DNA from: Patescibacteria group bacterium
GTDB lineage: Bacteria; Patescibacteriota; Patescibacteriia; Magasanikbacterales; GWA2-37-8
NCBI GenBank assembly: GCA_004321885.1
Contig: SCQK01000006.1
Location: forward strand, 1 to 40,129
DNA length: 40,129 nucleotides
Reading direction: 5' to 3'
Position 1 is the first letter of the stretch; each line of letters opens with the position of its first letter. The translations under genes were made by a program, and so were the position numbers. The notes below the pieces were generated by a model. That model did no database searches. It saw only the letters and a list, made by a program, of their open reading frames with translations, and had not been told where the DNA came from. This document shows, piece after piece, positions 3,154 to 40,129 of the stretch.

Positions 3154-4077
3154 ATGGGTAAGAGTTATGAGGAAGTTTGGCGTGGGCTCACCGGCGGCCA
3201 GCAGGAAGCGCTTCAGCGCAAGCTTTGGCTCGCGGCTGGCGGCCAGGATACAGGTGAGGAAGGACTCGCGACCATCTTGCGAGATGAGCAGAAAATCACG
3301 CTCGTGGACGCGATAGTGAAGCTCGCGGACAAGCGCGGCCGCTGCATCCCCATTCCGGGGATGCGGGGCAGGGTCGTGGACGCCAATCGCAATTTCCGGC
3401 TTGGCCATCTCGAGATCAGCACCGTGGGCATCCTCTACAATCTTCGGCAATTTTTCGCGCCGGAGATGAAGTTTCCTTCGGAAGCGGAGTTTGCGCGGCG
3501 TGTTGCCGATCTGATCGCGCTGGCGGAGAAGGATAAGCAGACGAAGAACCTGCTCAAGGGGGCGTACTGGCCTTTGTGCTTTCCGCAACTCGCGGTTGTG
3601 GACTATGGCCGTTCGCTGGAGGAGATTTTCCTGCCGGCGGTCAAGCGTTCGTACGAGGCCGCGTTCCCCGGTCGGAATTTCAAGAACTACCGCGCGGATG
3701 AGCTGGTCGAACAGGTGACCGTCGCCGCGGGCACTCGTCACGAGATGCTCCTCGCAAAGATGGCCGAGGGTCCGGTCGTCGGCCTTTGGTTCGCCAATCC
3801 GCTCCAGGGTTTTGGCATCCATGCCGACCGCGAGCAAATCGCTGCGTTCCCCGAGAGTTTCATACTCTCTGGCGCGATTGACACCGCGACCGCGATGGTG
3901 GCTGACCCGCAGACGCTCTGTCGGAGCTACAAGACCCCCAGCTACGTCTGTGCTGCCAACGTTTGGTATCACAACAGCTCGCCGTACTTCCGGGCCGATG
4001 ACGACAAGCTCTACTTCAGCGTGGGTGTCATCGACGCCAGCGACTTCAGCTCCGGTGGTTTGCTCTTTCTCGGGTAG
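3154..4077 (+). CDS. hypothetical protein (compositionally GC-rich, probably horizontally acquired)
   Basis: 307-aa ORF with protein-like composition, preceded by AAAGGAGA SD. The opposite-strand ORF 3076..3972 is Arg-rich junk typical of the antisense of GC-rich coding DNA. The segment is visibly GC-richer than its flanks. Confidence 0.55.
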   Translation: MGKSYEEVWRGLTGGQQEALQRKLWLAAGGQDTGEEGLATILRDEQKITLVDAIVKLADKRGRCIPIPGMRGRVVDANRNFRLGHLEISTVGILYNLRQFFAPEMKFPSEAEFARRVADLIALAEKDKQTKNLLKGAYWPLCFPQLAVVDYGRSLEEIFLPAVKRSYEAAFPGRNFKNYRADELVEQVTVAAGTRHEMLLAKMAEGPVVGLWFANPLQGFGIHADREQIAAFPESFILSGAIDTATAMVADPQTLCRSYKTPSYVCAANVWYHNSSPYFRADDDKLYFSVGVIDASDFSSGGLLFLG

Positions 4078-21259: not shown

Positions 21260-21264
21260 ATATT

Positions 21265-22314
21265 ATGGTACCGGAAAAGAAACCAATCAACGTGGCTGTC
21301 TGCGAAACAATGTTACAGTTTTTGCGCGATAATGGTCATGATATAAAACCCCTTTTCGCGCGCCTGCCTTACTCGGAAGAATATTTTAAGGGCGGCGGAC
21401 GTTGGGTGGAAGAGTGGGTGGTAAATACCGTGGCTGATTATATTCGCGGTCTTTACGGCTCTTATGAGATTTTGGAAAAAATGAGCGAAGACGCGTTTCG
21501 TCGCCGGCAATTCGGCTTTTTAAGCGCCATTCTTACTTTTTTGTTCAGCCCCCAGCGCGTGGCCAGCATTCTTATGAAAATAATTGACAGATTTTTGGAC
21601 AAAACCGCCGAACAGAAAAAGATTGAATATGGCGATGGCTATTTTAGATGGGTGTTGGCCAGAAAAAAAGAATACGGCCCGGCTCCGAGCGGCGCGCAGA
21701 TTTTTGCGGGCAAGGGCAATGTCAAAGGCCTGATCACGCATTTTGGCTGCGCCGATGTAAAAATAAAACTTAGCCGTTGTTACGTGTCTATAGATAAAAT
21801 GGGGCCGCTCGGGGGTAAAAAATATCGGATATTAGAGAATGGCGATGTTGAGTCCGTTGAGTTGTTAAGCAATGTTAAAAAGATAGTTGGGCATTTGGAC
21901 AAAGATGGCGCATTTTTTTTGGCTGGCACCCTATACGGCGCCAAGGACGCGGAGGTGGAAGTAACCTGGAAACCGTTGCGGCGGATGGAGAGTCTGCGGT
22001 TGTACGTCGGCGGCCTAAGGCTGGTGGGGTCAGTCAATAAAATAAACAGAAAGCGCAAGGCGGAATTAAAAAAGAAGCTGGCCGCCACGAAAGACATCCG
22101 GGAAAAATTAAAATGGGAAAAAAATTGGATTTCGGCTTTGCGACGCAAGCTGGAACAAAATGTCCTGGCGATAAATGATAGAATGAAAGGGAAGCAAGTC
22201 AATTTATATCAAAAATACGTCGAATTGAAAGAGTGGGAAGAAAAGGGTTTGGAACAGGAGAAAATGGTCATCCAACTTAAAGCTGAAATAGAAAAAACAA
22301 AACAATGCCTATGA
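21265..22314 (+). CDS. hypothetical protein with a C-terminal coiled coil
   Basis: ORF 21136..22314; the ATG at 21265 immediately follows the SpoIID stop (21259); the upstream 43 codons overlap SpoIID and are Arg-rich antisense-like; ~80 C-terminal residues are heptad-rich (KRKAELKKKLAATKDIREKLKWEKNW...). Confidence 0.55.
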   Translation: MVPEKKPINVAVCETMLQFLRDNGHDIKPLFARLPYSEEYFKGGGRWVEEWVVNTVADYIRGLYGSYEILEKMSEDAFRRRQFGFLSAILTFLFSPQRVASILMKIIDRFLDKTAEQKKIEYGDGYFRWVLARKKEYGPAPSGAQIFAGKGNVKGLITHFGCADVKIKLSRCYVSIDKMGPLGGKKYRILENGDVESVELLSNVKKIVGHLDKDGAFFLAGTLYGAKDAEVEVTWKPLRRMESLRLYVGGLRLVGSVNKINRKRKAELKKKLAATKDIREKLKWEKNWISALRRKLEQNVLAINDRMKGKQVNLYQKYVELKEWEEKGLEQEKMVIQLKAEIEKTKQCL

Positions 22315-27625: not shown

Positions 27626-30600
27626 ATGGTAAATAACCTCGCCACCAAGACATTTGTTCTGGATACTGACTTCAAATACGCGCCGGAAACCGGTTTGCGT
27701 TTTAAGCGGCATTTTACCAAAGCAGGCGCTAATCCTTATGATTTGTTCACTTACGAGTTGCGCTCGTCCCTTATCCGCGAGCCCAGCGGCCAGATTGTGT
27801 TTGAAATGAAAGAGGTGGAAGTGCCTGTTACCTGGTCCCAGGTGGCCACCGACATTTTAGCGCAAAAATATTTTCGCAAGGCCGGAGTGCCGAAATATAA
27901 TCCGGACGGCTCGCCCATGCTTGGGGCCGACGGGCTACCGGTACTCGGCTGCGAAACCAGCATTAAGCAGGTGGCGCACCGAATGGCCGGCACCTGGCGG
28001 TATTGGGGAGAGAAGTACGGCTATTTTGCCTCGGCCGAGGACGCGCAGGTGTTTTACGACGAGCTGGCCTACATGCTCATCGCCCAGATGGCCGCGCCCA
28101 ACTCGCCCCAGTGGTTCAACACCGGTTTGTACTGGGCTTATGGCATCAATGGCCCGGCCCAGGGGCATTATTATACCGACCATAACACGGACATCACCCA
28201 GCTTTCGCCTGATGCCTATTCACGAAGTCAGGCGCACGCGTGTTTTATCCAAGGAGTCAAAGATGACTTGGTAAATGAAGGAGGAATTATGGATTTATGG
28301 CTGCGCGAAGCGCGGATATTTAAATATGGTTCGGGCACTGGCACAAATTTTTCGGCTTTGCGCGGCGCCGGCGAAACACTTTCCGGCGGCGGCACCTCCT
28401 CGGGCTTGATGAGCTGGCTTAAAATCGGGGACCGCGCGGCCGGGGCCATTAAATCCGGCGGCACCACGCGCCGCGCCGCCAAAATGGTAATCCTAAACAT
28501 TGACCATCCGGACATTGAAGAATTTATTGACTGGAAAGTGCGCGAGGAAAAAAAAGTGGCGGCTCTGATCGCCGCCGGCTATGATAATGCCTATGAGGGC
28601 GAGGCCTACCAGACCGTTTCCGGACAAAATTCAAACAACTCGGTGCGCGTGTCCCAGGAATTTTTGGAAGCCGTGGAAAGTGACAGTGACTGGAAATTAA
28701 CCTGGCGCACCGACCCCGACAAATTCAAAGCTGTTAAGGCAAAAAAATTGTGGGATAAAATCGCTTCGGCGGCCTGGTCCTGCGCCGACCCGGGCGTGCA
28801 ATTTGACACCAATATCAACGACTGGCACACCTGCCCAAAATCGGGCCGTATCAATGCCAGCAATCCTTGCGCGGAATTTATGTACCTGGACTCAAGCGCT
28901 TGTAATCTCGCTTCCATCAACCTGGCGCATTTTTATGACGCGGATAATTTGACCTTTGATGCAGACGGATTTAAGTACACTTCGCGCTTGTGGACTGTGG
29001 TTTTGGAAATCAGTATTTTGATGGCTCAATTTCCAAGCTATGAGATTGCCAGAACCACTCAAGACACCCGCAGTCTGGGTTTGGGCTATGCCAATATCGG
29101 CAGTGTGCTGATGACCGCGGGCCTGCCCTATGATTCGCCCGAGGCCATGGCTTTCGCCGGCGCTGTTACCGCCCTCATGACCGCCGAGTCGTTCGCCGCC
29201 TCGGCCGAGCTGGCCAAAAATTTGGGGGCGTTCAAGTATTTTGCCGCTAATCGCGATGACATGTTGCGTGTGGCGCGCAATCACCGGCGCGCGGCTTACA
29301 GCGCCCCGGCGGAAGAGTACGAAGGCATCGCCATTAAGCCCGCCGGCATAAATGAACAGTACGCGCCGGCTTATCTGCTGGCCGAGGCGCGCGCGGCCTG
29401 GGACAGGGCCCTGGAGCTGGGGGAAAAATACGGCTTTCGCAACGCCCAGCTCACCCTGCTCGCGCCTACCGGCACCATCGGCCTGGTAATGGACTGCGCC
29501 ACCACCGGCGTGGAGCCGGATTTCGCTTTGGTGAAATTTAAAAAATTGGCCGGCGGTGGATATTTTAAGATTGTCAACGAATCCGTGCCCGTGGCTTTGC
29601 GCGTGCTGGGCTACAGCGACTTGCAGATAAATGATGTAGTGAATTATTTGCGCGGACACTCCACTTTGCGTCAGGCCCCGCATATCAATCATCAAACTTT
29701 GCTGGAGAAAGGCTTTACGGCCGATGAGCTGGACAAATTGGAAAAAGCCCTGCCCATGAGTTTTGAATTGCAGTTTGCCCTAAATGTTTGGACACTGGGT
29801 GAGGACTGCCTGAAACGGCTGGGCTTTACCAGCGAGCAGTATAATGACAATAATTTTAATTTGCTGGCGGCGCTGGGATTTTCCGCCGATGATATAGCGG
29901 CGGCCAATGAATATGTTTGCGGGGCCATGACCATAGAAGGCGCGCCGCATTTGCGCAAAGAGCATTACGCGGTGTTTGACACGGCCAACAAGAACGGCAA
30001 AAAAGGCCAGCGCTACATTCATTACCTCGGCCACATCCGCATGATGGCCGCGGTCCAGCCGTTTCTTTCCGGCGCCATTTCTAAAACCATAAACATGCCG
30101 AACGAGGCGACGATAGACGACGTCAAAACCGCTTACGTGGCCTCATGGAAACTTGGGCTCAAGGCCGTTGCTTTGTATCGTGATGGGTGCAAGCTGTCGC
30201 AACCCTTGTCCGCGAAATCAAATAAGAAAAAAGAGGACAAGGCTGAGGAGCCGGTCAATGCCGCGCCCGCCCAGTATGTTTTGACCGATAAAAGCGACCA
30301 CGTGATTCGTCAGATGATTTCTGAAACCCAGGCCATGACCAAGTACGCGCACGACGGCTCCAGCCAGGGCACGAAAATTTACATTCACGGCGAACAGCGC
30401 AAGATGCCGTACAAGAGAAGCGGGCTGACGATTAAAGCCAAGGTCGCGGGCCAAAAAATATTCTTGCGCACCGGCGAGTATCCGGACGGCAAACTGGGCG
30501 AGATATTTATTGATATGTATAAAGAGGGCGCGGCTTTTCGTAGTTTGCTCAATTGTCTGGCCATCTCCATTTCCACGGGCCTGCAATACGGCATACCATT

Positions 30601-31069
30601 GGAAGAATACGTGGAAAAATTTACTTTTACGCGCTTTGAGCCCAGCGGCATGACCGACCACCCGAACGTGCGCTCGTGCACCTCCATCATTGATTTTGTC
30701 TTCCGCGTGCTGGGCATGGAATATCTGGGGCGGATGGATTTTGTGCAGGTGAAACCGGTCGGCATCCAAAAAAACCGGGCCGAGCAGATGGCGAAATTGG
30801 CGGCCGAGAAAGCCGGGCAGAGATTGCTGGAGTTAAACGGGGCGGAGACGGAAATTGAAGAAGTGGAAGAAATAGTTCAGCCGAGTTTGCCCAATATGCC
30901 GCGGACAGACGCGGCGGGAAAAGGCGAGGTGACTTCCGACGCAATGAACCAGCAACTCGCGGGCATGATGGGCGACGCGCCGCCGTGCGCTACTTGCGGG
31001 CATGTCACTATACGAAACGGCAGTTGCTATAAGTGTTTGAATTGCGGGAGTACGACCGGGTGTTCTTGA
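27626..31069 (+). CDS. nrdJ: adenosylcobalamin-dependent ribonucleotide reductase (class II)
   Basis: 1147 aa; N-terminal ATP-cone-like region, RNR active-site Cys/Asn/Glu blocks (NPCAEFMYLDSSACNLASINL), C-terminal Zn-ribbon CATCGHVTIRNGSCYKCLNCGSTTGC typical of class II RNR. Confidence 0.9.
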   Translation: MVNNLATKTFVLDTDFKYAPETGLRFKRHFTKAGANPYDLFTYELRSSLIREPSGQIVFEMKEVEVPVTWSQVATDILAQKYFRKAGVPKYNPDGSPMLGADGLPVLGCETSIKQVAHRMAGTWRYWGEKYGYFASAEDAQVFYDELAYMLIAQMAAPNSPQWFNTGLYWAYGINGPAQGHYYTDHNTDITQLSPDAYSRSQAHACFIQGVKDDLVNEGGIMDLWLREARIFKYGSGTGTNFSALRGAGETLSGGGTSSGLMSWLKIGDRAAGAIKSGGTTRRAAKMVILNIDHPDIEEFIDWKVREEKKVAALIAAGYDNAYEGEAYQTVSGQNSNNSVRVSQEFLEAVESDSDWKLTWRTDPDKFKAVKAKKLWDKIASAAWSCADPGVQFDTNINDWHTCPKSGRINASNPCAEFMYLDSSACNLASINLAHFYDADNLTFDADGFKYTSRLWTVVLEISILMAQFPSYEIARTTQDTRSLGLGYANIGSVLMTAGLPYDSPEAMAFAGAVTALMTAESFAASAELAKNLGAFKYFAANRDDMLRVARNHRRAAYSAPAEEYEGIAIKPAGINEQYAPAYLLAEARAAWDRALELGEKYGFRNAQLTLLAPTGTIGLVMDCATTGVEPDFALVKFKKLAGGGYFKIVNESVPVALRVLGYSDLQINDVVNYLRGHSTLRQAPHINHQTLLEKGFTADELDKLEKALPMSFELQFALNVWTLGEDCLKRLGFTSEQYNDNNFNLLAALGFSADDIAAANEYVCGAMTIEGAPHLRKEHYAVFDTANKNGKKGQRYIHYLGHIRMMAAVQPFLSGAISKTINMPNEATIDDVKTAYVASWKLGLKAVALYRDGCKLSQPLSAKSNKKKEDKAEEPVNAAPAQYVLTDKSDHVIRQMISETQAMTKYAHDGSSQGTKIYIHGEQRKMPYKRSGLTIKAKVAGQKIFLRTGEYPDGKLGEIFIDMYKEGAAFRSLLNCLAISISTGLQYGIPLEEYVEKFTFTRFEPSGMTDHPNVRSCTSIIDFVFRVLGMEYLGRMDFVQVKPVGIQKNRAEQMAKLAAEKAGQRLLELNGAETEIEEVEEIVQPSLPNMPRTDAAGKGEVTSDAMNQQLAGMMGDAPPCATCGHVTIRNGSCYKCLNCGSTTGCS

Positions 31070-31082: not shown

Positions 31083-31661
31083 ATGAAAATCTATACCAAA
31101 ACCGGCGACACCGGTGAGACGTCGTTGTTAGGGGGAAAGAGGGTGAGTAAGAGCTGTGTGGAAATGAAAGTAGTTGGGGAAATTGATGAACTTAACGCGG
31201 CTTTGGGATTGGCTGTGTCACACTGTCATTCTGACCACGACGTAACGTCGGGGGAAGAATCCCTTGTTTTAATCATCAAAGACATTCAGCGCGATTTATT
31301 TAAATTAGGTGCGGAAATCGCTTCAGCTCAAACTGTCATTGCGACCCGCCCGGAGGCGGGGAAGCAATCACGGACAATCAGCGGCGAAGAAACAAAAAAA
31401 TTGGAAACAAAAATAGACCAACTCTGGCCCCAAATGCCCGAGTTGAAAAATTTTATCCTGCCCGGCGGGTGCGAGACGGCCGCGCGTCTGCACCTGGCCC
31501 GCGCGATTTGCCGCCGCGCCGAACGCGAACTGGTGGCCTTTGGCCAAAAGAAAAAAATCAGGACGGCATTGTATAGATACTTCAATCGCCTAAGCGATTT
31601 TCTCTTTACCGCGGCCCGCTGGGCCAATCATCAGAATGGAATCACAGAAGAGCCACGCTAA
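31083..31661 (+). CDS. PduO-type ATP:cob(I)alamin adenosyltransferase
   Basis: 192 aa; N-terminal MKIYTKTGDTGETSLLGGKRVSK and the C-terminal helical bundle of the PduO/MMAB family; contains two in-frame insertions derived from palindromic element B (31223-31263 and 31333-31369). Confidence 0.8.
   Translation: MKIYTKTGDTGETSLLGGKRVSKSCVEMKVVGEIDELNAALGLAVSHCHSDHDVTSGEESLVLIIKDIQRDLFKLGAEIASAQTVIATRPEAGKQSRTISGEETKKLETKIDQLWPQMPELKNFILPGGCETAARLHLARAICRRAERELVAFGQKKKIRTALYRYFNRLSDFLFTAARWANHQNGITEEPR
31223..31263. repeat. palindromic element B, degenerate copy B2, in-frame in pduO
   Basis: CTGTCATTCTGACCACGACGTAACGTCGGGGGAAGAATCCC (compare GTCATTGCGAG ... GAAGCAATCCC with an inner CGACGTnACGTCG hairpin as in B5). 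Confidence 0.6.
31333..31369. repeat. palindromic element B, copy B3, in-frame in pduO
   Basis: CTGTCATTGCGACCCGCCCGGAGGCGGGGAAGCAATC, near-identical to the first arm of B4. Confidence 0.7.
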
Positions 31662-31690
31662 AATAGCAGACCCTTTTGTTTTGGTGAGTG

Positions 31691-31772
31691 TGGTCCGGGT
31701 GGGAATCGAACCCACATGCCTTGCGGCACGAGATTTTAAGTCTCGCGTGTATGCCAGTTCCACCACCGGACC
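31691..31772 (-). tRNA. tRNA-Leu (anticodon TAA)
   Basis: On the minus strand: acceptor GGTCCGG/CCGGACC, anticodon stem-loop CGAGA-CTTAAAA-TCTCG, long variable arm TGCCGCAAGGCATG (class II), T-loop GGTTCGATTCC. Confidence 0.8.
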
Positions 31773-31828
31773 GTTGCCGCAACAATATCACAAATTAAAG
31801 CGCGGATCAAGGACACCGCTGCGATTTT

Positions 31829-31837
31829 ATGATATAA
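31829..31837 (+). promoter_or_regulatory. extended -10 promoter (TGaTATAAT) for the pilin-like cluster
   Basis: TGnTATAAT ~60 nt upstream of the 31899 ATG; element A8 lies between the promoter and the start codon. Confidence 0.4.
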
Positions 31838-31850
31838 TGTTAGCGCATAT

Positions 31851-31884
31851 ACCCCTCCCTCGCCCTCCCCTTATAAAGGGGAGG
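31851..31884. repeat. palindromic element A, copy A8 (upstream of the pilin cluster)
   Basis: CCCCTCCCTCGCCCTCCCCTTATAAAGGGGAGGG. Confidence 0.8.
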
Positions 31885-31898
31885 GATAAACCCATTTC

Positions 31899-33704
31899 AT
31901 GCCAAGGAGAGATAGAAAAAAAATCGCGCGCGGATTTAGTTTGTTGGAAGTGGTGCTTTCCGTCGGCATTTTTGTTTTGTTCGCTTTTGGCATTTACGGC
32001 GGCATCAATTTGATATTCAAAATTGTTTACCAGTCGCGCATGCGCATTTTAGAAACCGCGATTTTGGCCGAGAAATTGGAAATCGCGCGCAACCTGCCCT
32101 TTGACAGCGTGGGCATAATAAACGGCTCGCCCGCGGGCCTGCTGCCCCACACCACGACCACCATCAGAAACGGGCAGGTCTTCACCCTAATTACCACGGT
32201 GAGAAACATAGACGACCCTTTTGACGGCCTGGCCGGCGGCTCGCCCAACGACACTTCGCCGGCTGATTACAAGTTAGTGGAAATTTCCGCCATTTGTCAG
32301 ACCTGTCTGCAAAAAATCCCGGTAATTTTAAGCACCACTGTGGCGCCGAAAAATTTGGAAGGCGCCACCAGCAACGGCTCGCTTTTTATTCAGGTGTTTG
32401 ACGCCCAGGGTTTGCCCGTGGTCGGCGCCAATGTGAGCGCCACCAATACCGCGCGCGCGCCAAACGTGGTGATACAAGACACCACCGACAATACCGGCTG
32501 GCTAAAAATTATAGACACCACCACCGGCACGCAAAGCTATTATATTTCCGTCACTAAAAACGGCTTTTCGCGCGATTATTCGGTTGACGCGGCTTCCATA
32601 GGGGCCACGCCCATCAAGCCTCCGTCCACAGTTGTTACTCAAACCGTCACCGAGGTTAGTTTTTCCATAGACCGCGTCGGCTCAATGAATTTACACACCA
32701 TCAATTCAGGCTGTTCGGCCATCGCCAATGCCGATTTTAATATCAGAAGCGAACGGCTCCTTGGCACTAATCCGGATGTTTACAAATACAATCAAAATTT
32801 AACCACGAACGGCTCGGGCAATTACGCCTTTGCCAGCATGGAATGGGGCAAATATCATTTCAGCGCCACCAATACGCCCTATGATATCGCCGGCTCCATT
32901 CCCATGCTGCCGGCGGATTTGGCGCCGGGCGCGGCCCAGGACGTCTCTTTGATTTTAACCTCGCAATCCCCCAATTCATTGCTGGTGAAAGTAAAAGACG
33001 CGGGTACTGGCCTGCCGCTTTCCGACACGTTGGTTCATCTTACCAAAAGCGGCTATGATGAAAGTAAAACAACCGGTTATGGATTTATGCGCCAAACCGA
33101 TTGGTCCGGCGGAAGCGGCCAGGTAACCAGCACAGACCCGGCGCGCTATTTTGCCGATGACACCAACGTGGACAACAATTCTCCGGCCGGGGATTTGAAA
33201 TTAAAAAAAGCCGGCCCTGATTATCTAAACAGCGGCTGGCTGGAGTCTTCCACTTTTGATCTGCAAACGCAAGTTGATTTTCATAGTTTAATTTTTCAGC
33301 CGGTCACCCAGCCGCCGCAGACCGGGACCGAACCCATAAAATTTCAGATGGCCGCCACCAATACCCCCAGTTCCAGCGGCTGGGTTTATCTGGGCCCGGA
33401 CGGCGCCACCAGCACTTATTATGTTTCCACCAGCAGTTTGGTGTGGAGCGGCTTGGATAACAATCGCTATCTGCGTTACAAAGTATTTTTGAGCACGGCT
33501 GACACAGGCTATACTCCATTGCTGTCCGAAGTCTCCATCACCTATACCAATAACTGCGTGCCGCCCGGGCAGGTGTTTTTTGGCGGGCTTGGCGCCGGCA
33601 GTTACACATTGGAAGTTTCGCGAAATGGCTATATCACCAACAGCGGGCTGGTGGATGTGGCCGGCGCCACCGACGCGGTGGTAAATTTGTCTCCGAATAT
33701 ATGA
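31899..33704 (+). CDS. large type IV pilin-like protein (prepilin-type N-terminal cleavage/methylation domain)
   Basis: 601 aa; class III signal KKIARG|FSLLEVVLSVGIFVLFAF with Gly-1 and Glu+5, then a Thr/Ser/Asn/Gly-rich beta-type region of ~550 aa. Confidence 0.75.
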   Translation: MPRRDRKKIARGFSLLEVVLSVGIFVLFAFGIYGGINLIFKIVYQSRMRILETAILAEKLEIARNLPFDSVGIINGSPAGLLPHTTTTIRNGQVFTLITTVRNIDDPFDGLAGGSPNDTSPADYKLVEISAICQTCLQKIPVILSTTVAPKNLEGATSNGSLFIQVFDAQGLPVVGANVSATNTARAPNVVIQDTTDNTGWLKIIDTTTGTQSYYISVTKNGFSRDYSVDAASIGATPIKPPSTVVTQTVTEVSFSIDRVGSMNLHTINSGCSAIANADFNIRSERLLGTNPDVYKYNQNLTTNGSGNYAFASMEWGKYHFSATNTPYDIAGSIPMLPADLAPGAAQDVSLILTSQSPNSLLVKVKDAGTGLPLSDTLVHLTKSGYDESKTTGYGFMRQTDWSGGSGQVTSTDPARYFADDTNVDNNSPAGDLKLKKAGPDYLNSGWLESSTFDLQTQVDFHSLIFQPVTQPPQTGTEPIKFQMAATNTPSSSGWVYLGPDGATSTYYVSTSSLVWSGLDNNRYLRYKVFLSTADTGYTPLLSEVSITYTNNCVPPGQVFFGGLGAGSYTLEVSRNGYITNSGLVDVAGATDAVVNLSPNI

Positions 33705-33713
33705 GTATTATCC

Positions 33714-33799
33714 CTGTCATTGCGAGGACCCGCCCAGGGCGGGGACGAAGCAATCTCTTGCAATTACGCATGGGATTGCTTCGCTTCGCTCGCAATGAC
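33714..33799. repeat. palindromic element B, complete copy B4 (both arms)
   Basis: GTCATTGCGAG-GACCCGCCCAGGGCGGGGAC-GAAGCAATC ... GGATTGCTTCGCTTCGCTCGCAATGAC; the arms are reverse complements; lies between pilin genes 1 and 2. Confidence 0.8.
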
Positions 33800-34390
33800 A
33801 TGCGCGGCATCACGGTCGTGGAAGTGCTGGTGGCCGTGGCGCTTTTTGGTTTTTTGATAGTTTCCATCGCCTGGATTTTTTTGACCAGCTGGAAATCAAA
33901 CAGCATTGTTTGGGAACAGCTGGCCACGCAAAACGAGGGCCGCAAAGCCACCCAGGATTTTGTCAATGAACTGCGCACGGCTTCGGCTTCAAGCGGCGGG
34001 GCCTATGCCATAGAATCAGCCGCCACCTCATCCATAGTTTTTTATTCCAACATTGACGCGGACACTTTCAAAGAGCGCGTGCGTTATTTTCTTTCCGGCG
34101 CCACTCTCAAAAAAGGCGTCATCAAGCCGACCGGCGACCCGTTTGTCTACAATCCGGCCAATGAAATCATTACCGAAGTGGCGCACGATGTGGCCATGGC
34201 CGGCGCCCCGATTTTCACGTATTATAATGCAAATTTTAGCGGTTATTCTTCGCCTTTGCCCGCGCCAGTTACCACGACAATGATAAGGGTGGTAAATATC
34301 TCCTTGAAATTAGAAGAGGACCCGCATTTGTCTCCGGCGCCGTTTAACATTGAATCTAAAGTGATGATAAGAAATTTGAAAGACAACTGA
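33800..34390 (+). CDS. prepilin-type pseudopilin/minor pilin
   Basis: ORF 33701..34390; the first 33 codons are the in-frame translation of palindromic element B4; the ATG at 33800 gives MRG|ITVVEVLVAVALFGFLIVSIAW, a canonical prepilin signal with Glu+5. Confidence 0.7.
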   Translation: MRGITVVEVLVAVALFGFLIVSIAWIFLTSWKSNSIVWEQLATQNEGRKATQDFVNELRTASASSGGAYAIESAATSSIVFYSNIDADTFKERVRYFLSGATLKKGVIKPTGDPFVYNPANEIITEVAHDVAMAGAPIFTYYNANFSGYSSPLPAPVTTTMIRVVNISLKLEEDPHLSPAPFNIESKVMIRNLKDN

Positions 34391-34391
34391 T

Positions 34392-35768
34392 ATGCGAAAA
34401 AAATTTTTGCGCGGCAACATTCTCCTCTTTGTTCTCATCTTCGGCACCATCAGCGTGTCTATTATCGCGGTGGGGCTCACGGGCTACGGCATTTCGGAAA
34501 ATCGCGCTTCGGTGAAAAAGTTCAACCGCGAGCTGGCCTTCCAGGTGGCGGACGCGGGCGTCAATTATTATCGCTGGCATTTGGCGCACGCGCCCGCTGA
34601 TTATTGGGACGGTAATGCCAGCACTACGCCCGGGCCGTACGTGCATGATTACAAGAATAAAGACGGCGCCGTGATCGGGCAGTATTCCTTGCAAATCGCC
34701 ACGCCGACCTTGGGCGCGAGCGTGGTGACCATAGTTTCCACGGGCTGGCTGAATGAACAGCCGAACTCAAAAGTAAAAATCAAAGCGCGCGTGGGTTTTC
34801 CTTCGCTCACTGATTACGCTTTTCTGACCAACACCGACGTCTGGATTGGTGATACCGAAGTAACGCACGGCAAATTCCACGCCAATGGCGGCATCCGTTT
34901 TGACGGCCTGGCCGACGCGCCGGTAACAAGCGCCGTGGCCACCTATACCTGCAAGAGTTTTCACGGTTGCGGAGCCGGGCAGGTGAAAGACGGCATCTGG
35001 GGCCAGGGCGGCCCCAAAAGTTTGTGGAGCTATCCCATGCCGGCCAAGGACTTCACGGCCATCACAGCCAAGCTGGCGGAAATTTACACCAACTCGGACC
35101 CGGCCAAGGGCGGCATCAGGTTTTCTTCCTCGGGCCAGCAGGGCTGGCTGTTGCGTTTTTCCTCGTCCACCACGCCCGGCCAGTTGACCGCTTACAAAGT
35201 GACGGCCACGGACTGCTACAAGGCCAAAGACGTGGGCGGCAGCAGTTATTTTTGGCCTTGCATAGACATCAAAACCCTGGGCACGGGCACTGCTTATGAT
35301 ATGCCGGCCAACGGCTATATTTTTGTGGATGACACAGTGTGGGTGGACGGCGGCGTAAACGGCCGCGCTGTCATCGGCACTGGCGTCGGGAAAAGCATTA
35401 TTTTGAATGGCAATATTTTATACAAGGCCAAAAACGGCGAGCATGTGCTGGGGCTGATGGCCGAGCAGAATGTGCTCATTCCGCACAACTCGCCCAATTA
35501 TCTGGAAGTGGACGCGGCTATGCTGGCGCAAAATGGCGCCACCAAAAGATACTATTACCCCGGCGATATGAAAGAAAGTCTGTATATTTTTGGTTCCATC
35601 ATCACCAATAAATTGTGGACTTGGAGCTGGGTTTCGGGCGGGGGCGCCGTGGTTTCGGGCTATCGCAATACCAACTCCACTTATGACGAGAATCTGACTT
35701 TTGCTCCGCCGCCGGGGTTTCCGGTGGGCTCGGAATACCGGCTTTTGAGTTGGGAAGAAATAAAATGA
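34392..35768 (+). CDS. PilX-like minor pilin/pilus assembly protein (PilX_N-type N-terminus)
   Basis: 458 aa; N-terminus MRKKFLRG|NILLFVLIFGTISVSIIAVGL followed by RELAFQVADAGVNYYRW, which matches the PilX N-terminal domain pattern (no Glu+5); large C-terminal beta-rich domain; start 2 nt after the previous stop. Confidence 0.65.
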   Translation: MRKKFLRGNILLFVLIFGTISVSIIAVGLTGYGISENRASVKKFNRELAFQVADAGVNYYRWHLAHAPADYWDGNASTTPGPYVHDYKNKDGAVIGQYSLQIATPTLGASVVTIVSTGWLNEQPNSKVKIKARVGFPSLTDYAFLTNTDVWIGDTEVTHGKFHANGGIRFDGLADAPVTSAVATYTCKSFHGCGAGQVKDGIWGQGGPKSLWSYPMPAKDFTAITAKLAEIYTNSDPAKGGIRFSSSGQQGWLLRFSSSTTPGQLTAYKVTATDCYKAKDVGGSSYFWPCIDIKTLGTGTAYDMPANGYIFVDDTVWVDGGVNGRAVIGTGVGKSIILNGNILYKAKNGEHVLGLMAEQNVLIPHNSPNYLEVDAAMLAQNGATKRYYYPGDMKESLYIFGSIITNKLWTWSWVSGGGAVVSGYRNTNSTYDENLTFAPPPGFPVGSEYRLLSWEEIK

Positions 35769-35804
35769 TTGAAAAGCCGGGAGGATTTTGCTATACTTAT
35801 CTAT

Positions 35805-36674
35805 ATGGCCAAATCAATAAAAAAACTTGTCGTGCCGGTCGCGGGCCTGGGCACCCGTTTTTTGCCAGCCACCAAGGCCCAGCCCAAAGAAATGATGCCG
35901 GTGGTGGACAAGCCGATTATTCAGTATGTGGTGGAAGACGCGGTGGCCTCGGGCATCACTGATATTATTTTGGTTACGGGCCCCAGCAAGCGGGCCGTGG
36001 AAGACCATTTCAGCCCGAATTACGAACTTATCAATTTATTAAAAAAACAAAAAAAAGAGGCCGTGGCCGAGGAAGTGAAAAAAATTTCCGACCTGGCCAA
36101 CTTCATTTTCATCCGCCAAAAAGGGCCGTATGGCAACGGCACGCCGGTGCTTTGCGCCAAAGCGCTTCTGGGAGATGAGCCGTTTGCCGTGATGTGGGGC
36201 GATGAATTTTTCTACTCGCCGGATAAGCCCCATCTGAAACAGCTTATAGATGTATATGAAAAATATGGTGATCCGGTTATCACAGCCCACGAAACCGACG
36301 ATGAGGGCACAAGCAAGTATGGTATTATTGACGGCGTTGAAGTAGAGAAGGGTGTTTATCAGGTAAAAAAAATAGTAGAAAAACCCGGCCCGCAAAAGAC
36401 CCCGTCTCATTTGGGTATGTTTGGATCTTTTATTTTAACAAATGATGTCTTTGAAGCTTTGGAAAATACCAAGCTGGGTAAAGACGGAGAATTGTGGCTG
36501 GCCGATGCTAACGCCAAGGTGCTTAAAAAACGTCCATATTATGCTTGCTTGGTAGATGGCCAGTATTATGATACTGGCTCCAAGCTCGGGTATTTGAAAG
36601 CGAACGTGGAGTTCGCTTTGCGGGACAAAAAATTGGGCAAAGAATTTAAAAAATATCTTAAAAGCATTTTGTAA
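35805..36674 (+). CDS. galU: UTP--glucose-1-phosphate uridylyltransferase
   Basis: ORF 35769..36674 (TTG); the ATG at 35805 gives MAKSIKKLVVPVAGLGTRFLPATKAQPKEMMPVVDKP, the canonical GalU N-terminus. Confidence 0.85.
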   Translation: MAKSIKKLVVPVAGLGTRFLPATKAQPKEMMPVVDKPIIQYVVEDAVASGITDIILVTGPSKRAVEDHFSPNYELINLLKKQKKEAVAEEVKKISDLANFIFIRQKGPYGNGTPVLCAKALLGDEPFAVMWGDEFFYSPDKPHLKQLIDVYEKYGDPVITAHETDDEGTSKYGIIDGVEVEKGVYQVKKIVEKPGPQKTPSHLGMFGSFILTNDVFEALENTKLGKDGELWLADANAKVLKKRPYYACLVDGQYYDTGSKLGYLKANVEFALRDKKLGKEFKKYLKSIL

Positions 36675-36683: not shown

Positions 36684-38075
36684 ATGCCGAAATTTACAAA
36701 ACTACTCCCTTTGTTTTTGCTAACGGGTTTTTTGATTCTCGCCGGTTTTGGCTGCAAGGGCATTACCAAAGAGCAGGCCGCGGCCATCAGGCCGGTGGCT
36801 TTGGAATATTGGACAGTGGCCGATGACGTGGATGAAATGCAAAAGCTGATAGACCAGTACCGGGCCGCGCGGCCGTATCTCACCGTGAACCTGCGCCAAC
36901 TGCGCGGCAATGAGCTTTATCCGCGTCTGCTGGAGGCGCTTTCCGAAGACAAGGGGCCGGACATTGTTTCAGTAAGCAACAAGTGGCTGCGTTTGTTTTT
37001 GCCCAAACTGGCCCCTATGCCAGATAGTGTCAAAGATGCCACCGTAATTGTAACCAAGAATCAGCTGGGCGGCACTGACACGGTAATAAAAAATATTACC
37101 CAAAGTCTGCCTGGCGCCATAAACATTGACCGCGAATACGTGCGCGCAGTGAAAAACGACGTGGTAGTAAACGGCCATGTCTATGGCCTGCCTTTGTCTT
37201 TTGACACCATGGCTCTTTTTTATAATAAAGACATGCTGGACAAAGCCGGCATTGCCGAGCCGCCCAAAACCTGGGAGGACTTGCAAAAACAGGTCAAAAA
37301 ATTAACGCGCTTCAACAAGCAGACCGGCAAAATCACGCAAGCGGGCGCGGCGCTCGGCAACGGCAACGTGGATTCGTTTGATGATTTACTTTATCTATTA
37401 TACAGGCAGAGTGATTTGGATTTTACCGACGCCAACGGACAGGTTAGATTTAATCTGGTGAGGGCCGGACAGGAAAACAGCGATGTTAATCCTTTTAAGG
37501 TGGTGGGGTTTTTCACGGATTTTGCCAATCCCGAGCGCGACACCTACTCGTGGAACAAAGATATGGGCGGGGCCTTGGAGGCCTTTGTTAGCGGCAAGAC
37601 CGCTTTTATGCTGGGCTACAATTTTCAGCTTGATTTAATAAAAGCGCGCGCCCCCGGGCTTAATGTGGAAGTGACGCCTATGCTGCAGCTGAACCCCGAG
37701 GCCCCGGCCAACGCGGCCAGCTATTTTGTGCAGACGGTTATCGGCAAATCCAAGCGCCAAAACGAGGCCTGGGGATTGCTCAATTATTTGGCGCATTCGC
37801 GCGCGACCAAAGATTATTTGGACCGTAGCGGTCGGCCTTCGGCTTTGCGCGCGTACATAGAGGCGCAAAAACAAGACCCGAAATTGGCGCCTTTCGCGGC
37901 CCAGGTTTTGGCAGCCGAGAATTGGTACCGCGGGACAGATTATCCGGCGGCCATGACAGCCATCAGCGAAATGCTGGATGACTGGCTAAAACCCGCGTTG
38001 CCAGACGCCAATCCGGATGAAGTAAAACAAAATATTCTAAACGCCGCCGCGGCCAAGGTAAATCAAACGTTGTAG
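36684..38075 (+). CDS. ABC transporter substrate-binding protein, family 1 (sugar-type), probable lipoprotein
   Basis: 463 aa; signal peptide ending ...LAGFGCKG (Cys anchor); FYNKDMLDKAGIAEPPKTWEDL and overall pattern of extracellular solute-binding protein family 1; no permease or ATPase genes follow in the window. Confidence 0.75.
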   Translation: MPKFTKLLPLFLLTGFLILAGFGCKGITKEQAAAIRPVALEYWTVADDVDEMQKLIDQYRAARPYLTVNLRQLRGNELYPRLLEALSEDKGPDIVSVSNKWLRLFLPKLAPMPDSVKDATVIVTKNQLGGTDTVIKNITQSLPGAINIDREYVRAVKNDVVVNGHVYGLPLSFDTMALFYNKDMLDKAGIAEPPKTWEDLQKQVKKLTRFNKQTGKITQAGAALGNGNVDSFDDLLYLLYRQSDLDFTDANGQVRFNLVRAGQENSDVNPFKVVGFFTDFANPERDTYSWNKDMGGALEAFVSGKTAFMLGYNFQLDLIKARAPGLNVEVTPMLQLNPEAPANAASYFVQTVIGKSKRQNEAWGLLNYLAHSRATKDYLDRSGRPSALRAYIEAQKQDPKLAPFAAQVLAAENWYRGTDYPAAMTAISEMLDDWLKPALPDANPDEVKQNILNAAAAKVNQTL

Positions 38076-38086: not shown

Positions 38087-38121
38087 TCCCTCCCCTATTA
38101 GGGGAGGGGCAAGGGGAGGGG
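38087..38121. repeat. palindromic element A, copy A9 (SD of TrbC-like paralog 1)
   Basis: CCCTCCCCTATTAGGGGAGGG + GCAAGGGGAGGGG, 7 nt before the ATG at 38128. Confidence 0.8.
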
Positions 38122-38127: not shown

Positions 38128-38613
38128 ATGCGCCTTATCAATTTATATTTTTTTCTGGCTTTGCTTTTAGCGGTTTTTTTGTCCCCTGTCATTCCCGCGC
38201 AAGCTGAAAGTCCCTTTGGCACTGATGACGAGCAGGCTGGGCAGGCAAAGAAAAACGTTCAAGAGAAAGAAACCAAATCAAGCGAGCGCGCTTTGCCTTC
38301 GGTATTGCCAAACTGCGCCAAGACCGGCGATTTGTCCGCGAGTTCGCCCTGCCGCGATGTTTCCATATTCGTGGAGCTTGGCATCAACATCGCGCGCTAT
38401 TTGTTTTCCATTATCGGCGCGCTGGCCCTCTTAATGTTCGTCTACGGCGGCTTTATGCTGATACTGTCGGCCGGCAGCGCCGAGCGGGTGAAAAAAGGCG
38501 GTGAAATAATGCTGGCGGCTATGGTGGGACTCCTAATTTCATTTACCGCCTATATGCTGGTGCGCTTTTTGGGCGGGGCCGTGGGGCTTGGGAGTGAGTT
38601 TAAGTTGAAGTGA
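38128..38613 (+). CDS. TrbC/VirB2-like pilin family protein, paralog 1
   Basis: 161 aa; signal peptide, ~75-aa variable region with 2 Cys, then a conserved C-terminal two-helix hairpin ALALLMFVYGGFMLILSAGSAERVKKGGEIMLAAMVGLLISFTAYML; SD from element A9. Confidence 0.7.
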   Translation: MRLINLYFFLALLLAVFLSPVIPAQAESPFGTDDEQAGQAKKNVQEKETKSSERALPSVLPNCAKTGDLSASSPCRDVSIFVELGINIARYLFSIIGALALLMFVYGGFMLILSAGSAERVKKGGEIMLAAMVGLLISFTAYMLVRFLGGAVGLGSEFKLK

Positions 38614-38675
38614 CCCCGCTTAGCGGGGTTATTCTGACCATGCACCGCTCTGGTGCAGGGGAAGGATCCCTTAGT

Positions 38676-39290
38676 ATGAACAAGAAAAAAGTTGGAATGG
38701 TTATCATAATTTTATTGGCGGTATTTTTTTCTTTTTTGTTTGTTTCGTTTTCAGTAAAAGCCGCTTCAAATTGTTGGTGTAGCGTGCAGAACAAATGCAC
38801 TTTAAATATCCCGGCGGAAGAATGCGTGACGTTTGGACCAGATTGCCAATCGCAAGATACCTGCCCTGGTTATGTGGCTTGTTTTTGTGCCATGAAAAAT
38901 AATAGCTGTGAATTAGTGAAAGGCGGCGGGGAAGATTGTCAGGCGGCAGGTTGTAATATTTTAACCGAATGTCCCAAACCAGCGGAAAAACAGACTGACA
39001 CGTTTAGTAATTTACAACAGCAGGCCGCGAGTGGTCTGAATCCGGCCGGGTTTGGCGAGGTGCCGGATTTTATCGGTCAAGTTTTGAAGTTTCTAATGGG
39101 CGCCTTGGGTTCAATCGCTTTGGCGCTGTATGTGTGGGCTGGGTTTTTGTGGATGACCGCGGCTGGCAATGCTGAGCGCGCGGGCAAGGCCAAGACACTG
39201 TTGTTTTGGACCACTTTGGGCGTGGTGGGCGCTTTGGCCAGTTACACGCTCGTTAAGTTTATTTTCCAGGCCCTGGAACTAAGCGTATGA
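38676..39290 (+). CDS. TrbC/VirB2-like pilin family protein, paralog 2 (Cys-rich ectodomain)
   Basis: ORF 38610..39290, start re-chosen at 38676 (MNKKKVGMVIIILL...); 14 Cys in an ~80-aa variable domain, then the conserved hairpin SIALALYVWAGFLWMTAAGNAERAGKAKTLLFWTTLGVVGALASY. Confidence 0.7.
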   Translation: MNKKKVGMVIIILLAVFFSFLFVSFSVKAASNCWCSVQNKCTLNIPAEECVTFGPDCQSQDTCPGYVACFCAMKNNSCELVKGGGEDCQAAGCNILTECPKPAEKQTDTFSNLQQQAASGLNPAGFGEVPDFIGQVLKFLMGALGSIALALYVWAGFLWMTAAGNAERAGKAKTLLFWTTLGVVGALASYTLVKFIFQALELSV

Positions 39291-39688
39291 AAAAATTTTT
39301 ATTACTTTGTTTAGTTATATTTTTAGTCGCGTTATTTTTTCCTTTGGCGGGCTTGCGGGCCGAGGAGGCAAAAAAAGATTGCGCGCCCGACAGCACAGGC
39401 CAAATCGTGTGCAAATTACAGCCGCCGCTCTTGGGCAAAGATAAAAAACCCGTTACTGACCCGGCCGCGCTTGTCGGCATTATCATCAAGGGAGTTTTGG
39501 GCATTGTAGGTGCGCTCGCTTTATTGATGGTTTTTTGGGGCGCGGCTGGCTGGCTGTTCGCGGCCGGCAATCCGGAGAAAATTAAAGCCAGCACCAAAAC
39601 GATTGTTTGGGCTTTAATTGGGTTGCTGATAATTTTTGCCAGCTATATGTATATGAACGGCGTTTTGAAGTTTATGTTTGGCGGTTGA
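39287..39688 (+). CDS. TrbC/VirB2-like pilin family protein, paralog 3
   Basis: 133 aa; signal peptide, short variable region with 2 Cys, conserved hairpin ALALLMVFWGAAGWLFAAGNPEKIKASTKTIVWALIGLLIIFASYM; 4-nt overlap with paralog 2. Confidence 0.7.
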   Translation: MKKFLLLCLVIFLVALFFPLAGLRAEEAKKDCAPDSTGQIVCKLQPPLLGKDKKPVTDPAALVGIIIKGVLGIVGALALLMVFWGAAGWLFAAGNPEKIKASTKTIVWALIGLLIIFASYMYMNGVLKFMFGG

Positions 39689-39709
39689 TGGGAAAAGTGG
39701 TATACTATT

Positions 39710-39795
39710 GTCATTGCGAGCAAAGCGAAGCAATCCCATACATAATTGCAAGGGATTGCCGCGCCCCGACGTGACGTCGGGGCTCGCAATGACAG
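39710..39795. repeat. palindromic element B, complete copy B5
   Basis: GTCATTGCGAGCAAAGCGAAGCAATCCC ... GGGATTGCCGCGCCCCGACGTGACGTCGGGGCTCGCAATGACAG; lies between TrbC-like paralogs 3 and 4. Confidence 0.8.
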
Positions 39796-39835
39796 TAACA
39801 ATTATGCACTCAAAATTCCGAAAGGGGGTGAATGT

Positions 39836-40129
39836 ATGAAAAAGTTAATCGCGATTGCTCTAATAGCGGTGTCTTTGGCTTTGGTTTTGGGCGCAACCGA
39901 CGTTTTGGCGCAACAACAGATAACCACCAATGATATTGGCTTGAAAGAAGCGGGTAGCACTGGTTTAGGCAATAAGGACGTCAGAGAAACAACCGGTCTT
40001 ATCATCAAAACCGCCATGGGCCTCTTGGGCATCGTGGCTGTGGTGATTATCCTTATCGGCGGCTTTACCTGGATGACGGCCGGCGGCAATGACGAGAAAG
40101 TTACCCAGGGCAAGAAATGGATTTTCTCG
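39836..40129 (+). CDS. TrbC/VirB2-like pilin family protein, paralog 4 (3' end beyond the window)
   Basis: ATG at 39836 preceded by AAAGGGGGTG SD; MKKLIAIALIAVSLALVLGATDVLAQQQ signal, then AMGLLGIVAVVIILIGGFTWMTAGGNDEKVTQGKK, the same conserved hairpin; the frame remains open to the window end. Confidence 0.6.
   Translation, partial: MKKLIAIALIAVSLALVLGATDVLAQQQITTNDIGLKEAGSTGLGNKDVRETTGLIIKTAMGLLGIVAVVIILIGGFTWMTAGGNDEKVTQGKKWIFS

Follow-up and report, generated by a model that had tools for sequence, protein, structure and literature searches.

Three adjacent, co-directional genes, here called A, B and C, lie on the plus strand between positions 31899 and 35768 of a 40,129-bp contig (SCQK01000006.1, assembly GCA_004321885.1) from a metagenome-assembled genome of the Patescibacteria, or candidate phyla radiation (CPR); the contig was analysed over its whole length and is referred to below as the window. 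Type IV pili (T4P) are thought to be central to host attachment and DNA scavenging in the CPR, and their pilins are usually called too divergent to compare across lineages. We propose that A, B and C form a T4P minor-pilin module whose products would assemble into a priming complex that ends at the pilus tip, a reading to which we assign a probability of roughly 0.8. The open reading frames (ORFs) of 601, 197 and 458 aa reported in a preliminary description of this DNA are all present, the 197 aa of B applying to a start at 33797 (Table 1), and a single base separates the stop codon of B from the ATG of C. All three products are 'hypothetical' in the source record, proteins C and B being identical to GenBank EPN28_01480 and EPN28_01475 (206 aa) respectively, both labelled 'hypothetical protein'.

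Scanning the window in all six frames for G-[hydrophobic]-x-x-x-E with a hydrophobic stretch behind it returned exactly two sites, and these are the N-termini of A (ARG, then FSLLEVV) and B (MRG, then ITVVEVL), in agreement with the two canonical G, F/I-x-x-x-E signals described earlier. In A the leader MPRRDRKKIARG runs up to the cleavage point and is followed by FSLLEVVLSVGIFVLFAF, while in B the cleavage point lies between (..)MRG and ITVVEVLVAVALFGFLIV; both proteins carry the charged leader up to Gly(-1), the ~20 hydrophobic residues and the Glu+5 of a type IV pilin signal. The N-terminus of C reads ...LRG, NILLFVLIF and then RELAFQVADAGVNYYRW, an N-terminal hydrophobic pilin helix without Glu5, as in cap-type minor pilins. 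The earlier statement that all three proteins have class III signal peptides therefore stands for A and B and has to be amended for C, which lacks Glu5 and so is not canonical; this absence is exactly what is expected of a cap subunit.

These features are conserved in orthologues taken from 80 species-level genomes. Of the A proteins, 68/72 have Gly-1 and 70/72 have Glu+5, and the corresponding counts for B are 78/80 and 80/80; C retains the Gly in 82/84 proteins and has F, Y, L, V or I at position +5, never Glu. The Pfam model N_methyl (PF07963) matches 30 of 33 B-family members at E<=0.01 (best 9.8e-10) and has a precomputed match in most A homologues. PilX_N (PF14341) matches nine of 45 C-family members at the same threshold (best 3.2e-5), and one C homologue has been named 'pilus assembly PilX N-terminal domain-containing protein' by NCBI.

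Predicted architecture of the three proteins

Protein A is a modular type IV pilin, in which a pilin module is fused to independently identifiable non-pilin modules. The Pfam model CarboxypepD_reg (PF13620) scores 42.2 bits against a cutoff of 32.3, and the AlphaFold2 (AF2) model (predicted local distance difference test, pLDDT, 77.8; predicted template-modelling score, pTM, 0.59) places a helix at residues 15-64, a beta head at 71-148 and further beta domains after it. In the predicted layout a pilin module (~13-148) is followed by several beta-sandwich modules of transthyretin/CnaB-like type, and a conserved beta domain forms the C-terminus. A has more than 1,700 homologues. Across lineages its first ~300 residues are conserved and the rest is shuffled, with lengths between 445 and 1322 aa in orthologues that have either lost the C-terminal ~200 residues or acquired extra modules; it is this conserved front joined to shuffled modules that makes A a modular pilin as the term is used by Raynaud et al. 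The preliminary description had called two of the three proteins far larger than ordinary minor pilins and rich in Thr/Ser/Asn/Gly beta-type sequence, and this was borne out, with non-pilin beta-domains attached to both and an S+T+N+G content of 35% in A and 32% in C.

Two observations on A-type genes in public records are worth recording. A public gene call for A (P0121, 587 aa, 100% identical) puts the start 14 codons further on, at Leu15, and thereby drops the leader and the Gly-Phe cleavage site, so that automated annotation hides the pilin nature of A. In a 'Parcubacteria' genome (locus L030, 1265-11368) the whole A-B-C trio occurs twice in tandem, the A protein of the first copy reaching 1322 aa with ~650 extra residues between its conserved N- and C-terminal parts; this arrangement suggests two alternative tip complexes for one pilus machine.

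Judged by its sequence, B appears to be a minor pilin of conventional size. It has at least 1,079 homologues, and the family alignment displays an invariant Gly-1, an invariant Glu5 and a C-terminal R-N-L-K motif. Its NCBIfam and Pfam matches (GspJ, PilV and gspI) are weak, sub-threshold and N-terminal, and are driven by the N-terminal helix.

The AF2 model of C, built on a 45-sequence alignment (pLDDT 88.7, pTM 0.82), consists of a helix (residues 7-66), a four-stranded sheet (83-135), a beta-solenoid of ~290 residues (~142-430) and a conserved C-terminal strand (450-457). The long N-terminal helix and pilin-type beta head resemble those of many solved pilins, and the model displays a GspK-like pilin fold with a large extra domain. 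In a Foldseek search the Thermus thermophilus pilin ComZ was the sole significant match (E 2.6e-10, probability 1.00, full-length alignment), at a TM score of 0.30 that may reflect a different hinge between the two domains; ComZ was the top match in both structure searches, with 14-15% identity in the structural alignment. ComZ itself has a GspK-like pilin domain with an inserted solenoid resembling ice-binding proteins (IBPs) and has been argued to fit only at the pilus tip (PMC6561018). Like ComZ, C is predicted to combine a GspK-like pilin domain with an IBP-type triangular beta-solenoid. Lectin or immunoglobulin (Ig)-like folds had been raised for the large C-terminal domains; structure prediction gives beta-sandwiches in A and a ComZ-type solenoid in C, and no lectin site was found in the window proteins.

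No Pfam model exists for the solenoid of C, whose family forms 862 clusters at 50% identity. With one genome taken per GTDB species, the C-family profile found relatives in at least 584 species-level genomes, and the lineages that hold the trio include Magasanikbacteria, Doudnabacteria, Kuenenbacteria and Paceibacter. Long C relatives (750-1774 aa; P0248, P0290, P0267 and P0351) carry grafted modules: Big_2 with PKD, DUF4215 and PA14; three Fib_succ_major with five fn3; DUF5122 propeller repeats; and a concanavalin A (ConA)-like lectin (Laminin_G_3, 8.8e-26) inserted after the pilin domain. Other relatives of 700-900 aa have extra sequence without a Pfam match. Such variation of module content, in A as in the relatives of C, is as expected for effectors displayed at a tip.

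Linkage to type IV pilus machinery and proposed assembly

We compared 80 related CPR loci, drawn from the genomes matching the C-family profile. The A-B-C order was unbroken in all 80 wherever the contig was long enough, and T4P machinery lay within 10 kb of the trio in 15 of them. In a Paceibacter locus (L084), Pfam matches give the order PilB (T2SSE 4.8e-133, with MshEN), PilC (T2SSF 4.6e-56), A (940 aa), B, C, PilM (PilM_2 4.8e-44) and PilN, and a Doudnabacteria locus (L047) reads PilB, PilC, PilM, PilN, ORFs of 202 and 89 aa, a small prepilin, A (821 aa), B and C. The order PilB, PilC, A, B, C, PilM was found in L068 and L050, and six Magasanikbacteria-like loci (L063, L064, L066, L070, L073 and L079) have a divergent pilB-pilC-pilM(-pilN) cluster ~2-3 kb upstream. 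This linkage to pilB-pilC-pilM-pilN in relatives, a case of guilt by association, is strong evidence that the trio belongs to a type IV pilus.

The preliminary description had presented the trio as a cluster 'without pilus motor genes'. This is true of the window by both Pfam and tblastn, but does not extend to the family, in which pilB-pilC-pilM-pilN lie inside or beside the cluster in the 15 loci above, and the missing motor genes are a local accident of gene order. Pfam matches elsewhere in the window are to housekeeping genes and include RuvC, SpoU methylase, DJ-1, PfkB kinase, a thioredoxin-reductase-like protein, Rpe, RpiB, CBS, MTAP, IleRS, metallophosphatase, Fic, AI-2E transporter, polysaccharide flippase, a SpoIID-like protein, SBF transporter and RuvB. 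CPR genomes widely encode PilB/C/M/N/O/T and PilD, without PilQ and without an outer membrane (PMC6744442). As a separate observation, many third-party annotation metagenome assemblies with the trio in Magasanikbacteria-like synteny (L005, L006, L012, L013 and others) carry titles reading 'uncultured Gammaproteobacteria bacterium' or 'uncultured Candidatus Saccharibacteria bacterium', which look like taxonomic mislabels in public records.

The nature of the linked genes also bears on whether the trio could instead be the tip of a type II secretion system (T2SS)-like pseudopilus of GspI/J/K type, serving protein secretion and not an external pilus. We consider this very improbable, as the neighbours in relatives are PilM_2 and PilN, which are of T4P type, and neither a secretin nor any other T2SS-specific gene (GspC, GspD, GspL) was found in the window or in 84 loci. 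CPR lack PilQ and the outer membrane (PMC6744442), the very large external modules on A and C would be ill-suited to a periplasmic piston, and the source names are generic labels prompted by the N-terminal helix.

By analogy with GspI-J-K, FimU-PilVWX, ComZ/PilA2, Streptococcus sanguinis PilABC and the PilX-type minor pilins of TM7x, we infer the subunit order, tip location, peptidase processing and ligand of the T4P minor-pilin module as follows. A, B and C would be inserted in the membrane through their N-terminal hydrophobic helices, and a prepilin peptidase would cut A and B, and probably C, at the conserved Gly. C would take the top position, because, without Glu5, it could not neutralise a subunit above it and because it bears a bulky beta-solenoid, with B docking beneath C and the modular pilin A beneath B. 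The resulting tip complex would rest on a PilC/PilM/PilN platform while PilB drives polymerisation of the major pilin underneath; genes for the platform, for PilB and for the major pilin presumably lie elsewhere in the genome. As CPR have neither secretin nor outer membrane, the size of the tip would be unrestricted, and it could display two parts as effectors, namely the C solenoid and, in A, the beta-sandwich stalk together with the C-terminal domain.

Several results weigh against such a module. Pfam scans of the large window ORFs found no PilB, PilC, PilT, PilM or PilD, tblastn with CPR PilB/C/M/N seeds returned nothing in the window, and no major pilin gene was found there; as the window holds none of it, the machinery of this genome is deduced from relatives and from the literature. 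Even among relatives, machinery lies within 10 kb in 15 of the 80 loci and no more, and the A24 prepilin peptidase motif GxGDxK had no match in the window or in 84 fetched loci. N_methyl scores 15.9 bits on A and 16.9 on B, below its gathering cutoff of 21.2, TIGR02532 reaches 13.1 bits on window proteins against a cutoff of 16.3, and the PilX_N-like N-terminus noted earlier for C is a weak match of 17.2 bits against 25.5. The folds of A and C are predicted structures, that of A having a pTM of just 0.59 and several low-confidence linkers. Searches of all PDB sequences with A, C and the family profiles of C and B returned nothing past N-terminal pilin helices and gave no sequence homology to ComZ, GspK or GspJ: ComZ (6QVI) was not retrieved even at E<=10, whether by phmmer with C or by hmmsearch with the profile built on 45 family sequences. 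B may be either I-like or J-like.

The sub-threshold N_methyl and PilX_N scores, together with the lack of a peptidase gene nearby in the GxGDxK search, could speak for a quite different reading, namely that A, B and C are not pilins but ordinary Sec-exported or membrane-anchored surface proteins that resemble class III substrates by chance. We find this hardly credible. The motif conservation across orthologues confirms the pilin signals despite the weak Pfam scores, Gly-1 and Glu5 being near-invariant over 72-80 orthologues, and N_methyl E-values fall as low as 9.8e-10 within the family. The predicted N-terminal helix and beta head match many solved pilins, and in relatives the genes are embedded in pilB-pilC-pilM-pilN operons. 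Taken together, we retain the T4P minor-pilin module as the preferred reading of the locus.

Surrounding features of the window

The trio is probably its own transcription unit, because it is preceded by a minus-strand tRNA-Leu gene and then by a promoter candidate that matches the sigma-70 consensus (Table 1). An Rfam scan of the window returned tRNAs only, with no riboswitch or small RNA in or near the cluster. Further upstream lie genes for a B12-dependent ribonucleotide reductase (27626-31069) and a cobalamin adenosyltransferase (31083-31661). These two were considered as partners in a DNA-uptake role and rejected, since, among the 42 loci in which A, B, C, galU and the solute-binding protein (SBP) gene all occur, six have this neighbourhood; it is present for example in L001, L006 and L011, and absent from L003 and most loci.

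Table 1 Features in and around the A-B-C cluster, in window coordinates.
Feature	Position	Strand	Description
tRNA-Leu(UAA)	31690-31772	-	Opposite strand to all neighbours; separates the cobalamin adenosyltransferase gene from gene A
Sigma-70-like promoter candidate	31810-31838	+	AGGACA, 17-nt spacer, TG-extended TATAAT; 10/12 in consensus scan plus TG extension
Hairpin CCCTCCCC-loop-GGGGAGGG	31863-31885	+	3' arm gives Shine-Dalgarno-like GGAGG, 14 nt before the ATG of gene A
Gene A	31899-33704	+	601 aa; modular type IV prepilin, leader MPRRDRKKIARG before FSLLE
Palindromic repeat, ~85 nt	33716-33799		Perfect 11-nt inverted termini GTCATTGCGAG...CTCGCAATGAC; in A-B spacer, in frame with B
Gene B	33797-34390	+	197 aa from MRG, ITVVE; apparent small minor prepilin
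Gene C	34392-35768	+	458 aa; MRKKFLRG, NILLF; cap-type (GspK/PilX-class) minor pilin, predicted ComZ-like
GalU-like UTP-glucose-1-phosphate uridylyltransferase	35769-36674	+	Probable true start ATG 35805; NTP_transferase 5.5e-26; TIGR01099 314 bits (cutoff 326.8)
SBP_bac_1 solute-binding lipoprotein	36684-38075	+	Pfam 6.8e-24; ...LAGFGC lipobox-like N-terminus
PF18895 T4SS_pilin (TrbC/VirB2-like), first of tandem array of three	38128-38613	+	27.7-32.5 bits over the three genes (cutoff 26.6)
PF18895 T4SS_pilin, second of array	38610-39290	+	As above
PF18895 T4SS_pilin, third of array	39287-39688	+	As above

The start of B is ambiguous because the ~85-nt palindrome lies in frame between the stop codon of A and the Gly of B. 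Besides 33797, translation could begin at 33701, 33770 or 33776, the possible lengths being 197, 206 (GenBank), 208 or 229 aa, and the in-frame repeat is also the source of a spurious 'LLRFARNDM' N-terminal extension of the ORF. If B were to start at 33701, where an ATG overlaps the stop codon of A, the repeat would sit inside a cleavable 35-aa leader. A second copy (39710-39793) follows the third T4SS_pilin gene, the two copies being 88% complementary over 59 nt, and a half-site lies at 4244-4254; in sequence the element resembles a miniature inverted-repeat transposable element (MITE) or a repetitive extragenic palindromic (REP) element. A-B spacers in orthologues range from -4 to ~70 nt.

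The hairpin in front of gene A recurs at 1092-1114 and 38088-38108 (0 copies expected in shuffles), with loops of 5-7 nt, and each copy stands 14-20 nt upstream of a start codon, namely those of an ORF at 1132, of gene A and of the first T4SS_pilin gene; in two copies a second GGGAGGGG follows. A strong Shine-Dalgarno sequence makes up its 3' arm and could be sequestered by the hairpin. A role for the CCCTCCCC/GGGGAGGG hairpin as a common regulator of pilus and surface genes was considered and rejected, as one of the three copies precedes a cytoplasmic-looking ORF.

Downstream of C, galU, the SBP gene and the T4SS_pilin array follow on the same strand, the array occupying 38128-40129 with three complete genes. 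In relatives the PF18895 arrays hold 8-10 paralogues (L001 13564-19452, L003 14218-18538), several of them with Cys-rich N-terminal extensions, and the window copies have sub-threshold NCBIfam matches to the mycoplasma integrative and conjugative element model 'Mbov_0395 family pilin-like'. The preliminary description had joined galU, SBP and the TrbC-like array to the trio as one functional surface locus. Such a composite surface-appendage or glycosylation locus, in which UDP-glucose would feed pilin glycosylation or a VirB2-like filament would cooperate with the pilus, is improbable in our view. In its favour, the order A-B-C-galU-SBP-T4SS_pilin array is conserved in ~50 Magasanikbacteria-like loci, and the GGGGAGGG hairpin with its Shine-Dalgarno element precedes both gene A and the first T4SS_pilin gene. 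This association is, however, restricted by lineage: Doudnabacteria, Paceibacter and other more distant relatives keep A-B-C without galU, SBP or array, which marks the link as lineage-specific synteny, and the hairpin also stands before the unrelated cytoplasmic-looking ORF at 1132. Neither a glycosyltransferase nor an oligosaccharyltransferase was found in the cluster, and no type IV secretion system (T4SS) ATPase of VirB4 or VirD4 type within 10 kb of the T4SS_pilin arrays.

Two distant parts of the window deserve mention in their own right. A stretch of high GC content at 3076-4077 (0.59 against a window mean of ~0.50) has long overlapping ORFs on both strands, 3154-4077 on the plus strand (307 aa) and 3076-3972 on the minus strand (298 aa); of the two, the plus-strand ORF was the one scanned, and it matched no Pfam or NCBIfam family. 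A 392-aa ORF at 21136-22314, which lies downstream of the gene for the SpoIID-like protein, also had no family match.

Candidate ligands and comparison with known systems

The large domains of A and C had been described as pilus-tip or along-shaft adhesin domains. The tip is indeed the best reading of their location, C being GspK/ComZ-like without Glu5 and A modular with PF13620-type beta-sandwiches; the adhesin label is less well founded, as the nearest structure to C is that of a DNA-binding competence pilin. We therefore weighed two ligands, a component of the host surface and DNA. Median identities across 42 loci were 52% for A, 48% for B and 57% for C, against 51% for SBP, 54% for the cobalamin adenosyltransferase and 67% for GalU.

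According to the first possibility, the trio would be a host-adhesion tip complex in which the C solenoid and the C-terminal modules of A bind a host glycan or polymer during episymbiotic attachment. We hold this tentatively, at somewhat less than even odds. It is favoured by the ConA-like lectin, PA14, PKD, Big_2, Fib_succ_major, fn3 and beta-propeller modules grafted onto long C relatives, and by the PF13620 folds of A, which have been called 'carbohydrate-binding-like' (PMC8179133). Precedents include the tapirins, the adhesive modular pilins PilB and PilC at the S. sanguinis pilus tip (PMC9934059) and PilX2 of TM7x, which is required for efficient host binding (PMC11623550). On the other hand, A, B and C diverge no faster than the neighbouring enzymes and are conserved across at least 584 species, a pattern that host-specific adhesins would not be expected to show if their ligand were not very widely shared. 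The window proteins themselves yielded neither a lectin site nor any other binding site, and the matches of the A beta-sandwiches are to generic stalk domains. The preliminary assignment of the genes as host-interaction adhesins was thus not upheld in that form, the enzyme-like divergence being unusual for host-specific adhesins, yet the lectin, PA14 and Ig-like modules of long C relatives still favour adhesion as such.

According to the second possibility, which we regard as doubtful, C would sit at the tip of a competence pilus as a ComZ-type DNA receptor, B would be the PilA2-like partner, and uptake through ComEC would feed nucleotide salvage. ComZ, the top structural match to C, binds the adjacent small pilin PilA2 and DNA (PMC6561018). 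CPR mostly lack nucleotide synthesis and rely on scavenging, and ComEC occurs in 86% of their genomes but ComEA in no more than 31%, which led to the proposal of an alternative DNA-binding mechanism (PMC6744442). The slow, enzyme-like divergence of the trio and its spread over several CPR lineages would also fit a universal ligand better than a host-specific one. Against this, the likeness to ComZ is structural alone, with 14-15% identity and a profile search that misses ComZ, the same solenoid fold serves elsewhere in ice binding and adhesion, and the DNA-binding lysines of ComZ are not mappable onto C. The grafts on C relatives are of adhesion and carbohydrate types, none being DNA-related, no com genes are adjacent in any locus, and deletion of T4P-2 pilins in TM7x left competence unchanged (PMC11623550).

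On balance we favour a conserved host-surface glycan or polymer over DNA as the ligand of the tip complex, with both possible, and the two readings are not mutually exclusive. A bolder version of the DNA hypothesis, which we think unlikely, holds that the C family is the missing extracellular DNA receptor of the CPR and that, with B, it captures DNA for ComEC import in place of ComEA; if true, the trio would be a core nutritional organelle of several major CPR lineages and not a host-specific adhesin. The ComZ architecture is rare and its only characterised example binds DNA, and C, alone or with B, offers an expressible target for asking whether CPR pili capture DNA, glycans or both.

Of the systems compared, ComZ/PilA2 of T. 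thermophilus (PDB 6QVI, 6QVF; Salleh et al. 2019, PMC6561018) is the closest to C in predicted design. C, by prediction, and ComZ both combine a GspK-like pilin domain with an IBP-type beta-solenoid, both begin with a hydrophobic helix and are missed by standard pilin detectors, and each is encoded beside a small conventional minor pilin and is too bulky to fit anywhere except at the tip. They differ in that C has no detectable sequence homology to ComZ and, at 458 aa, is shorter than the ComZ chain of 518 residues deposited in the PDB. The diderm Thermus has a secretin, which CPR lack, and its locus holds PilA1, PilA2, PilA3, ComZ and the major pilin PilA4; the CPR locus has three genes, one of which encodes the modular pilin of 601 aa, and none nearby for a major pilin. 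DNA binding is established for ComZ, while C is likened to it by predicted fold.

The pseudopilus tip GspI-GspJ-GspK (PDB 3CI0, 5VTM) and its T4aP homologues, the core minor pilins FimU-PilV-PilW-PilX, resemble the trio as operons of consecutive minor-pilin genes in which the last product lacks Glu5, has an extra domain and caps the filament, as is proposed for C. The weak PilX_N match of C and the proposed priming role on a PilC/PilM/PilN platform add to the likeness. The trio nevertheless has three genes, not four, and is without PilY1; the extra domain of C is a predicted beta-solenoid where that of GspK is an alpha-domain, A is far larger than GspH, GspI or GspJ, and the gspJ, gspI and pilV models match the N-terminal helix alone, far below their cutoffs.

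In the monoderm S. sanguinis, the Glu5-less subunit is the first of PilA-PilB-PilC to be added, and two modular pilins fan out at the tip (PMC9934059, PMC8179133). As in the CPR locus, three minor pilins occur together, two of them are bulky, modular and fit only at the tip, and no outer membrane limits their size; a ConA-like lectin module, as in PilC, is found on some C relatives. The Glu5-less subunit of S. sanguinis is small, however, and its modular pilins are the two that bear Glu5, whereas in the trio the Glu5-less C is itself large. The modules differ as well, being von Willebrand factor A and lectin domains there and a predicted solenoid and transthyretin-like sandwiches here, with no sequence relationship between them.

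The nearest case within the CPR is Nanosynbacter lyticus TM7x, whose PilX1 and PilX2 are large PilX-type minor pilins for which no PilD signal is predicted; they are candidate adhesins of the pilus tip, and host binding drops when pilX2 is deleted (PMC11623550). Like C, they carry C-terminal accessory beta-domains, have been proposed to sit at the tip and are accompanied by smaller minor pilins that resemble T2SS pseudopilins. Their accessory folds are a jelly-roll and a seven-bladed propeller, in contrast to the IBP-type solenoid predicted for C. The TM7x pilins are reportedly poorly conserved outside Saccharibacteria, whereas the trio occurs in at least 584 species of other CPR lineages, and TM7x has been studied by deletion while the trio family is known from sequence and predicted structure.

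For A, the catalogue of modular pilins by Raynaud et al. (2021, PMC8179133) lists a pilin joined to PF13620 among the 15 most frequent architectures, with a Magasanikbacteria protein as representative no. 1. A shares with this class a class III signal and a pilin module followed by PF13620-type modules, the catalogued Magasanikbacteria protein being likened to A by domain architecture. The catalogue is a census of domain architectures, without structure, genomic context or partners for the A-type family.

T4P minor-pilin tip complexes, modular pilins and CPR pili are thus all well known. A literature search for ComZ together with Patescibacteria or CPR returned irrelevant matches only, and what appears undescribed in the literature searched is the three-gene module conserved across several CPR lineages, a CPR cap subunit with a predicted ComZ architecture, and a solenoid family that has no Pfam model despite its 862 clusters. 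As a marker set, A, B and C make it possible to look for the pilus tip complex in CPR genomes that label its genes 'hypothetical protein'. The trio leaves the general picture of type IV filaments unchanged, and adds another case to the theme of tip complexes and modular pilins.

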